From the NCBI RefSeq assembly GCF_003790525.1, contig NZ_CP033634.1: 64,000 bases of DNA; one strand, given 5' to 3'. This document shows positions 637 to 2,437 of the stretch, piece by piece (position 1 is the first letter of the stretch; every line of letters begins with the position of its first letter). The DNA comes from Escherichia coli (lineage in GTDB: Bacteria > Pseudomonadota > Gammaproteobacteria > Enterobacterales > Enterobacteriaceae). Position numbers and translations under genes: made by a program. The notes beneath the pieces were generated by a model. It was not told the DNA's origin, searched no databases, and saw only the letters and a list, made by a program, of their open reading frames with translations.

Positions 637-1456
637 GGCACTGTTGCAAATAGTCGGTGGTGATAAACTTATCATCCCCTTTTGCTGATGGAGCTGCACA
701 TGAACCCATTCAAAGGCCGGCATTTTCAGCGTGACATCATTCTGTGGGCCGTACGCTGGTACTGCAAATACGGCATCAGTTACCGTGAGCTGCAGGAGAT
801 GCTGGCTGAACGCGGAGTGAATGTCGATCACTCCACGATTTACCGCTGGGTTCAGCGTTATGCGCCTGAAATGGAAAAACGGCTGCGCTGGTACTGGCGT
901 AACCCTTCCGATCTTTGCCCGTGGCACATGGATGAAACCTACGTGAAGGTCAATGGCCGCTGGGCGTATCTGTACCGGGCCGTCGACAGCCGGGGCCGCA
1001 CTGTCGATTTTTATCTCTCCTCCCGTCGTAACAGCAAAGCTGCATACCGGTTTCTGGGTAAAATCCTCAACAACGTGAAGAAGTGGCAGATCCCGCGATT
1101 CATCAACACGGATAAAGCGCCCGCCTATGGTCGCGCGCTTGCTCTGCTCAAACGCGAAGGCCGGTGCCCGTCTGACGTTGAACACCGACAGATTAAGTAC
1201 CGGAACAACGTGATTGAATGCGATCATGGCAAACTGAAACGGATAATCGGCGCCACGCTGGGATTTAAATCCATGAAGACGGCTTACGCCACCATCAAAG
1301 GTATTGAGGTGATGCGTGCACTACGCAAAGGCCAGGCCTCAGCATTTTATTATGGTGATCCCCTGGGCGAAATGCGCCTGGTAAGCAGAGTTTTTGAAAT
1401 GTAAGGCCTTTGAATAAGACAAAAGGCTGCCTCATCGCTAACTTTGCAACAGTGCC
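637..1456 (+). mobile_element. IS26 (IS6 family), 820 bp, copy 1
   Basis: 14-bp terminal inverted repeats GGCACTGTTGCAAA at 637-650 and complement at 1443-1456; internal transposase ORF; flanking 8 bp differ (no target duplication). Confidence 0.95.
700..1404 (+). CDS. tnpA: IS26 transposase (DDE, IS6 family)
   Basis: ORF 682-1404; product [50 protein letters not shown]... recognised as IS26 Tnp; start taken at MNPFKG. Confidence 0.95.
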   Translation: MNPFKGRHFQRDIILWAVRWYCKYGISYRELQEMLAERGVNVDHSTIYRWVQRYAPEMEKRLRWYWRNPSDLCPWHMDETYVKVNGRWAYLYRAVDSRGRTVDFYLSSRRNSKAAYRFLGKILNNVKKWQIPRFINTDKAPAYGRALALLKREGRCPSDVEHRQIKYRNNVIECDHGKLKRIIGATLGFKSMKTAYATIKGIEVMRALRKGQASAFYYGDPLGEMRLVSRVFEM

Positions 1457-1617
1457 GTTAAAAGCAACAAAAATGACTTCGTTGATGCTGAAGCTATCTG
1501 TGAAGCAGCATCACGTCCATCTATGCGTTTCGTGCAGCCCAGAACCGAATCTCAGCAGGCAATGCGAGCTCTGCATCGTGTCCGTGAATCCCTGGTTCAG
1601 GATAAGGTGAAAACAAC
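1457..1617 (+). pseudogene. Internal fragment of an IS4321/IS5075-like (IS110 family) transposase gene trapped between two IS26 copies
   Basis: In-frame translation VKSNKNDFVDAEAICEAASRPSMRFVQPRTESQQAMRALHRVRESLVQDKVKTT matches the conserved KNDxxDAxAICEA region of IS110-family transposases (compare 19127-20143); no start, no stop, 161 bp only. Confidence 0.6.
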
Positions 1618-2437
1618 GGCACTGTTGCAAAGTTAGCGATGAGGCAGCCTTTTGTCTTATTCAAAGGCCTTACATTTCAAAAACTCTGCTTACCAGGCGC
1701 ATTTCGCCCAGGGGATCACCATAATAAAATGCTGAGGCCTGGCCTTTGCGTAGTGCACGCATCACCTCAATACCTTTGATGGTGGCGTAAGCCGTCTTCA
1801 TGGATTTAAATCCCAGCGTGGCGCCGATTATCCGTTTCAGTTTGCCATGATCGCATTCAATCACGTTGTTCCGGTACTTAATCTGTCGGTGTTCAACGTC
1901 AGACGGGCACCGGCCTTCGCGTTTGAGCAGAGCAAGCGCGCGACCATAGGCGGGCGCTTTATCCGTGTTGATGAATCGCGGGATCTGCCACTTCTTCACG
2001 TTGTTGAGGATTTTACCCAGAAACCGGTATGCAGCTTTGCTGTTACGACGGGAGGAGAGATAAAAATCGACAGTGCGGCCCCGGCTGTCGACGGCCCGGT
2101 ACAGATACGCCCAGCGGCCATTGACCTTCACGTAGGTTTCATCCATGTGCCACGGGCAAAGATCGGAAGGGTTACGCCAGTACCAGCGCAGCCGTTTTTC
2201 CATTTCAGGCGCATAACGCTGAACCCAGCGGTAAATCGTGGAGTGATCGACATTCACTCCGCGTTCAGCCAGCATCTCCTGCAGCTCACGGTAACTGATG
2301 CCGTATTTGCAGTACCAGCGTACGGCCCACAGAATGATGTCACGCTGAAAATGCCGGCCTTTGAATGGGTTCATGTGCAGCTCCATCAGCAAAAGGGGAT
2401 GATAAGTTTATCACCACCGACTATTTGCAACAGTGCC
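1618..2437 (-). mobile_element. IS26 (IS6 family), 820 bp, copy 2, inverted relative to copy 1
   Basis: GGCACTGTTGCAAA at 1618-1631 and TTTGCAACAGTGCC at 2424-2437; sequence is the reverse complement of copy 1; flanks differ (no target duplication). Confidence 0.95.
1670..2374 (-). CDS. tnpA: IS26 transposase
   Basis: ORF 1670-2392 minus, product identical to the copy-1 transposase. Confidence 0.95.

Follow-up and report, generated by a model that had tools for sequence, protein, structure and literature searches.

A probable inherited IS26 mosaic scar around a 161-bp IS5075 remnant in a Tn1721/Tn1722-type transposon of an Escherichia coli F-type plasmid

Pseudo-compound transposons and translocatable units formed by the insertion sequence (IS) IS26 reportedly require, according to Harmer and Hall, directly oriented copies of the element. 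Two IS26 copies also bracket a piece of DNA in the locus described here, which lies in a 64-kb stretch of Escherichia coli contig NZ_CP033634.1 (assembly GCF_003790525.1; hereafter the window, to whose full length all coordinates refer), but these copies are inverted, so that the 161-bp segment between them cannot leave as a translocatable unit. Closer to this locus are the IS26 scars described by He et al. 2015 in mBio (PMC4471558), in which inverted IS26 copies without target duplications stand beside partial genes, and relatives differ by loss or inversion of IS26-bounded segments. Such copies beside partial genes are the accepted mark of IS26-mediated deletion or rearrangement, and adjacent deletion is a documented and common outcome of IS26 activity that leaves no target duplication (PMC4471558). 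The present locus is the same in kind; in comparison with those scars, its residue is unusually small (161 bp) and free of resistance genes, and it carries no matched inverted 8-bp flanks that would prove a specific in-trans event.

The locus is interpreted, with a probability of about 0.85, as an inherited IS26 mosaic scar, that is, a non-functional rearrangement of a Tn1721/Tn1722-type transposon carried by an F-type plasmid. None of its four junctions is private to this plasmid, and only their combination, with the second and third junctions on one 161-bp piece, is unrecorded. It is an ordinary scar, of a kind found in thousands of resistance plasmids, and it brings no new element, mechanism or gene. 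All of its components are 100% identical to known elements, all junctions occur in public plasmids, and the mechanism is that of textbook IS26 activity.

The two IS26 copies were found where the initial annotation had placed them. Copy A occupies positions 637–1456 on the plus strand and copy B positions 1618–2437 on the minus strand; each is 820 bp long and they are exact reverse complements. The transposase gene tnp26 (234 aa) lies at 700–1404 in copy A and at 1670–2374, minus strand, in copy B. Both copies show the 820-bp length, the perfect 14-bp terminal inverted repeats and the single 234-aa DDE transposase that define IS26. The 14-bp repeat GGCACTGTTGCAAA has exactly four matches in the window, all at the ends of these copies (chance expectation 0.06), and Tnp26 scored 275.6 bits against the NCBIfam model of the IS6 family (NF033587, cutoff 125). 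The DNA of copy A is 100% identical to the IS26 annotated in pGZM7d (L003), pEC31-3 (L008), pEC009.2 (L013) and a further plasmid labelled L001, with the annotated Tnp26 being WP_001067855.1. The arms of 829 nt given by the repeat finder overshoot the true IS26 ends, as mismatches were tolerated in the outer flanks and a 3-bp chance match was added on the inner side.

Copy A has its left inverted repeat (IRL) towards tnpA and its right inverted repeat (IRR) towards the segment between the copies, whereas copy B has its IRR towards that segment and its IRL towards mcp. Four junctions result: J1 (636|637), where the 3′ end of tnpR meets IS26; J2 (1456|1457), where IS26 meets nt 316 of IS5075; J3 (1617|1618), where nt 476 of IS5075 meets IS26; and J4 (2437|2438), where IS26 meets codon 21 of mcp. 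The 8-bp flanks are TGCGGAGG and GTTAAAAG for copy A and AAAACAAC and CTTTCGAC for copy B. No direct 8-bp repeat was detected at copy A, at copy B or around the whole unit 637–2437 (TGCGGAGG against CTTTCGAC), in agreement with the earlier statement that neither copy has a target duplication. Each copy has therefore gone through deletion, inversion or recombination, and its identity as IS26 is not affected. The signature of an intramolecular or in-trans inversion by IS26, matched inverted 8-bp flanks, was rejected, the best pair (GTTAAAAG against GTCGAAAG) agreeing at only 6 of 8 positions.

The segment between the copies (1457–1617, plus strand, 161 bp) is an internal fragment of IS5075, an element of the IS1111 subgroup of the IS110 family. 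It is identical at 161 of 161 nucleotides to nt 316–476 of the 1,327-bp IS5075, the coordinates being taken from the insert in pHCM1, which splits a 38-bp terminal repeat of Tn21. An open frame, beginning VKSNKNDFVDAEAICEAASRPSMRF, runs across the segment and corresponds to transposase codons 84–137. Its 53-aa translation matched the NCBIfam IS110 transposase model with E = 2.7e-17 and 62.9 bits, below the cutoff of 140 for the full-length protein. The initial annotation had called the segment an IS4321/IS5075-like transposase fragment of the IS110 family and had staked that reading on a database match; the match was found, and the element is IS5075 at 100% identity. Matches of 100% were obtained in at least 3,997 PLSDB records, annotated as IS110-like element IS5075 family transposase, and a second group of 955 PLSDB records, presumably IS4321, matched at 90–95% identity. 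The fragment is not a complete IS5075: it has no element ends, no gene start and no stop, and holds codons 84–137 only. No further IS5075 DNA was detected in the window. A bridge-RNA or other non-coding role, considered for a fragment of an IS110-family element, was set aside, since the fragment consists of internal coding sequence only.

For the DNA on both sides of the pair, a near-intact Tn1721/Tn1722-type copy on plasmid pMB06021_contig_3 (L004), named 'TnAs1 family' by the Prokaryotic Genome Annotation Pipeline (PGAP), was used as the reference element. In that copy tnpA (minus strand, 1648–4614) is followed by tnpR (minus strand, 4618–5178) and by mcp (plus strand, from 5488). Positions 1–636 of the window correspond to L004 4001–4636, and the window from 2438 onward corresponds to L004 from 5548 onward. 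The 911 bp between these points (L004 4637–5547), which hold most of tnpR, the res site and the first 20 codons of mcp, are replaced by the IS26 pair, and no such DNA was detected elsewhere in the window. The absence of tnpR and res between tnpA and mcp, pointed out at the start, is thus confirmed.

The 5′ part of tnpA (1–614, minus strand) comprises the first 204 codons, with the ATG at 612–614, and the gene continues beyond the start of the window. It matched the NCBIfam Tn3-family transposase model with E = 6e-56, and positions 1–636 are 100% identical to the TnAs1-family tnpA region in L003, L004, L008, L013 and L014, annotated as Tn3-like element TnAs1 family transposase (WP_001138014.1). 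TnAs1 and Tn1721 are presumably one lineage, in keeping with the linkage to mcp. The 22 bp between tnpA and copy A (615–636, minus strand), noted from the beginning, consist of the 3-bp spacer between tnpR and tnpA (615–617) and the last 19 nt of tnpR with its stop codon (618–636). Of the claim that both neighbours are truncated by IS26, the part concerning mcp stands; on the other hand, tnpA is uncut at its IS26 end, and it is tnpR that is cut by the left copy.

On the right side, mcp (orfI, encoding a methyl-accepting chemotaxis protein with a PAS domain; PAS and MCP model matches) runs on the plus strand from 2438 to 3932. As had been stated, the right copy cuts it in frame: the fragment begins at 2438 on a codon boundary, and the annotated coding sequence has lost its first 20 codons, exactly 60 nt. 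The frame is open back into IS26, where an ATG at 2399 gives an in-frame leader of 13 codons, and the IS26-mcp fusion protein is annotated in relatives as WP_053897648.1. After an interruption described below, the 3′ remainder of mcp and the mcp-proximal end of the transposon follow (5248–5468, plus strand; mcp to about 5278), and plasmid backbone begins thereafter. A 38-bp terminal inverted repeat, CTTAGCGTACGATTTTTTCCGAATTCTGCGGTTCCCCC, is located at 5431–5468, and homology to Tn1721-type copies on five different backbones (L001, L004, L008, L014 and pKP2722-3, labelled L007) ends at 5467–5469. An mcp (orfI) gene adjoining the 38-bp terminal repeat is the arrangement by which Tn1721/Tn1722 is recognised; the opposite terminal repeat lies off the window. 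The Tn1721-like identity of both neighbours, under the PGAP name 'TnAs1 family', is in accordance with the initial annotation.

Both tnpA and mcp keep the divergent orientation that is native in L004, so that the Tn1721 parts need no inversion. A co-orientation of the Tn1721 mcp with tnpR and tnpA, which would have demanded one, was rejected on the same comparison. A scan for sigma-70-like promoters on both strands of 400–2800 gave 0 matches. A hybrid promoter formed by an outward IS26 –35 box (TTGCAA) was also considered and rejected, as no acceptable –10 box follows it: towards tnpA the hexamers at 16–18 bp (GGACGA, GACGAC and ACGACT) are poor –10 boxes, and so is CCTCCC at 17 bp towards mcp.

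Junctions were searched for in other plasmids with tags containing 20 bp of IS26, a length below the megablast word size; tags of 30–40 bp gave mostly two-piece matches to IS26 only. J1 is identical in at least 25 PLSDB plasmids among the matches listed, from Klebsiella, E. coli and Salmonella, and J2 occurs in hundreds of records. Positions 480–1617 of the window, from J1 through IS26 and J2 to the fragment, gave a single contiguous match of 100% in at least nine plasmids among the matches listed. The whole of 1–1617 is contiguous and 100% identical in pEC009.2 (NZ_MN262643.1) and pLR-71-1_3 (NZ_AP027602.1), in both of which IS5075 extends to nt 1327. An identical J4 is found in pGZM7d, pKP2722-3 and pEC31-3, and positions 1618–3932 are contiguous and 100% identical in pGZM7d (11598–13912 of L003) and pEC31-3.

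J3 is rare. Four plasmids of Klebsiella contain it (NZ_CP097662.1, labelled L002, CP048414.1, NZ_AP022413.1 and NZ_CP093466.1; origins China, Japan and Chile), in at least three surrounding contexts and always with IS5075 nt 1–476 upstream, and no match to it was obtained in 5,426 complete E. coli genomes, the GTDB representative genomes or the metagenomes of the Joint Genome Institute (JGI). In the four plasmids J3 is identical to that of the window and involves the same IS26 end in the same orientation; they differ in that the 5′ side of IS5075 is intact and lies inside a Tn21-family terminal repeat, and in that the far side of the IS26 is mer, IS1 or integron DNA and not mcp. The exact unit of IS26, 161 bp and IS26 was absent from PLSDB and from the same three collections. 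A plasmid that appeared near-identical by length (pEC_ABCX4-1, H26) was discarded, as its order is different (IS26-mcp-IS26-IS5075).

Two further arrangements were observed in these plasmids. In pKP2722-3 (NZ_CP116906.1) IS5075 is split by inverted IS26 copies, with nt 459–1327 at 2132–3000 and nt 1–466 at 5599–6064; the 8 bp shared by both parts (459–466) are the signature of genuine IS26 transposition, 10 bp from J3. In NZ_CP097662.1 two complete IS26 copies (992–1811 and 1820–2639) stand in direct tandem with 8 bp between them. Together with J2 and J3, the split in pKP2722-3 gives three independent IS26 breakpoints, at nt 315/316, 466 and 476, in a stretch of some 160 bp of IS5075.

The closest backbone is that of pGZM7d (NZ_CP129283.1), an IncFIA plasmid of E. 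coli from chicken, which is 99.8% identical over window positions 5248–28000 (22.8 kb) in one piece. It shares with the window the junction between transposon end and backbone, J2, J4 and the orientation of both IS26 copies. It differs in having tnpR and a class 1 integron (dfrA17-aadA5) in place of J1, and 5.7 kb with the rest of IS5075, sul2 and ISVsa3 in place of J3, as well as in the absence of an IS1414 insertion. Its order is tnpA, tnpR, integron (dfrA17-aadA5), IS26 (rightward), J2, IS5075 (316–1327), sul2, ISVsa3, further DNA, IS26 (leftward), J4 and mcp. In pEC31-3 the order is tnpA, J1, IS26 (rightward), fosA3/blaCTX-M, IS26 (leftward), floR, ISVsa3, sul2, IS5075 (reversed), J2, IS26 (leftward), J4 and mcp. 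Both pEC31-3 and pEC009.2 are IncI-gamma/K1 plasmids with the transposon at the same backbone site. The IS26 that forms J2 also forms J4 in pEC31-3 and J1 in pEC009.2, so that the two plasmids have the IS5075/sul2-type segment on opposite IS26 copies; this indicates that segments between inverted IS26 have flipped in this family, which thus contains inversion isomers.

The left part of the window (1–1617) is what pEC009.2, pLR-71-1_3 and at least seven other plasmids have in common with it. Beyond that part, IS5075 in pLR-71-1_3 runs to nt 1327 and is followed by IS26-bounded segments with sul2 and dfrA1, and in pEC009.2 a recombinase gene and then the aac(3)-IId/blaTEM-1/rmtB region follow, whereas the window meets its second IS26 at nt 476. 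No resistance-module DNA was detected in the 64 kb.

These comparisons suggest the following course. In an ancestral step IS26 evidently entered the transposon and removed the 911-bp core from tnpR through res to the 5′ end of mcp, leaving J1 and J4 as outer boundaries. Between these boundaries relatives hold IS26-bounded resistance modules, and one such module starts with an IS5075 already truncated at nt 316 by IS26 (J2) and runs on to sul2. The immediate ancestor would then have had the order tnpA, J1, IS26 (rightward), J2, IS5075 from nt 316 to 1327 with resistance genes beyond it, IS26 (leftward), J4 and mcp, and one last event would have removed all DNA from IS5075 nt 477 up to the second IS26, at its inner end (IRR), and so created J3. 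As no junction is private to the plasmid, the events appear mostly ancestral and reassorted, rather than repeated in this molecule. The initial annotation had seen here the footprint of repeated IS26-mediated deletions and inversions; the signature of deletion and rearrangement is present, but the events are mostly ancestral, the Tn1721 parts require no inversion, and inversions are seen among the relatives.

With respect to the last step, the somewhat more probable route is an exchange by homologous recombination or gene conversion, the partner being a copy that bore IS5075 (1–476), J3 and IS26; the order and direction of the events are not readable from the sequence. Of the two crossovers, one would have fallen within IS26 and the other within the 161 bp shared by two IS5075 copies truncated at opposite ends. 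This route is favoured because J3 is identical to the nucleotide to an old and dispersed Klebsiella junction. Several observations weigh against the scheme. No database record joins J1, J2 and J4 on this backbone in the way the scheme requires; pGZM7d is without J1, and J4 did not appear in the 22 kb examined of pEC009.2. No record links J3 to J4 either. In addition, the absence of J3 from the 5,426 E. coli genomes and from the GTDB and JGI collections means that a donor would be needed from a Klebsiella-like host, while the backbone relatives are plasmids of E. coli, Shigella and E. albertii. Finally, with at least three IS26 breakpoints in this part of IS5075, an independent event at nt 476 is less improbable than a uniform model implies.

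The strongest competitor, a real though lesser possibility, is that J3 arose de novo in the lineage of this plasmid. The IRR of copy B would have attacked IS5075 between nt 476 and 477 by intramolecular replicative transposition in cis, the intervening DNA would have been lost as a circle with one IS26, and it would be by chance that the Klebsiella junction is the same. A single event from an ancestor of the pEC009.2 or pGZM7d type would suffice, of the adjacent-deletion type already documented for IS26 (PMC4471558), and its geometry yields the correct IS26 end and orientation automatically. The three IS26 positions within 160 bp of IS5075 suggest a favoured region, and no J3 donor is present among the 5,426 complete E. 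coli genomes. On the other hand, the deletion would have to have hit the same nucleotide as the junction of four unrelated Klebsiella plasmids, a coincidence of about 1 in several thousand if targets are uniform over the 5.7-kb interval of pGZM7d. Recombination with a J3-bearing copy is retained as the preferred last step.

An assembly artefact is very unlikely. Two truncated IS5075 copies, one with IS26 joined to nt 316–1327 and one with nt 1–476 joined to IS26, could have been threaded through their shared 161-bp node, with the IS26 repeats collapsed. Both single junctions do occur separately in nature, the combined structure is in no other public sequence among the collections searched, and short-read assemblies classically go wrong at perfect inverted repeats such as these of 820 bp. 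However, the window holds just these two IS26, with no other IS5075, tnpR/res or resistance-module DNA, and its remainder is collinear with pGZM7d; the left block from J1 to J2 and the right block from IS26 through J4 to mcp are each contiguous in independent complete plasmids. Origins other than recombination, de novo deletion or artefact have, even taken together, only a slight chance of being correct. That the inverted pair is an active composite transposon or a selected unit, moving the 161 bp or driving tnpA or mcp, is the least credible proposal: although IS26 pairs are able to mobilise the DNA between them and the fusion frame from the ATG at 2399 is conserved in several plasmids, no 8-bp duplication surrounds 637–2437, the copies are not direct as in a pseudo-compound transposon, the DNA carried is no more than 53 codons from the interior of a gene, without start or stop, the promoter scan gave no match, and none of the collections searched has the unit at another site.

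The interruption of mcp is due to IS1414 (IS256 family, 1,315 bp, 3933–5247, minus strand), which was 99.4–100% identical to annotated IS1414/astA and scored 428.8 bits with the IS256-family transposase model. It contains an intact astA gene for the heat-stable enterotoxin EAST1 (4344–4460, minus strand), sits 23 bp before the end of mcp and is flanked by an 8-bp duplication, GGCAAAAC, at 3925–3932 and 5248–5255. In pGZM7d the site is empty and mcp is uninterrupted there, and the junctions between mcp and IS1414 are spanned by no PLSDB match. Given the clean duplication, the empty site and the lack of a junction match, IS1414 looks like a recent simple insertion. It is separate from the IS26 scar, and it puts a toxin gene inside the transposon remnant.

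Beyond the transposon end, an orphan 38-bp terminal inverted repeat of the Tn3/Tn21 family, GGGGTTTGAGGTCCAGTGGAACGAAAACGTACGCTAAG, is located at 6490–6527, oriented rightward. It faces the Tn1721 repeat (5431–5468) at a distance of 1,021 bp, and a gene for a ydeO-like AraC-family regulator (5506–6306) lies between the two. Genes for a phosphotransferase system (PTS) IIBC transporter, a hydrolase and a GntR regulator follow on its right, and no partner repeat was detected in the window. It possibly marks one end of another Tn3-family element, now decayed, and pGZM7d, being collinear over 5248–28000, presumably carries the same repeat.

Rfam matches in the rest of the window were AS-pc01 (25222–25324), the sok antitoxin RNA (32598–32774), the traJ 5′ untranslated region overlapping FinP (36712–36821) and AS-traG (58739–58824). 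Together with ParA and UmuC-like genes (10766–12777), they identify the window as an F-type conjugative backbone of the pGZM7d (IncFIA) type. Two open reading frames, at 13183–14271 (minus strand, 362 aa) and 14626–15807 (plus strand, 393 aa), had no NCBIfam match. Annotated features in the collinear region of pGZM7d include IS2, DUF3560, a PIN-domain protein and the transposase of ISShdy1 (IS110 family).

What is left of the transposon would be a remnant without resolvase and res site, in which tnpA appears to have lost its upstream region and to have no recognisable promoter, and the region would retain no resistance gene. An exchange between the 820-bp arms would invert the 161-bp segment and leave all junction sequences unchanged, and either IS26 copy could be targeted by IS26 translocatable units. 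The pair is a likely site of flip-flop inversion and of renewed gene capture by IS26. For assembly, a perfect inverted repeat of 820 bp with only 161 bp between its arms also calls for caution.

The significance of the locus is small beyond bookkeeping. The region is a resistance locus stripped to its IS26 scaffold, as the same boundaries in relatives enclose sul2, floR, fosA3/blaCTX-M or dfrA17-aadA5, and IS26 boundaries can be traced as inherited markers across plasmids, which is useful for plasmid epidemiology and annotation. A tentative extension, held at somewhat under even odds, is that the resistance region collapsed by recombination between the form with IS26 joined to nt 316–1327 and the Klebsiella-borne form with nt 1–476 joined to IS26, short IS remnants having served as recombination handles. 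If so, IS remnants would, besides IS26 itself, link and purge resistance modules across genera, and the outcome would be an 'empty' double-IS26 docking site primed for IS26 translocatable units.

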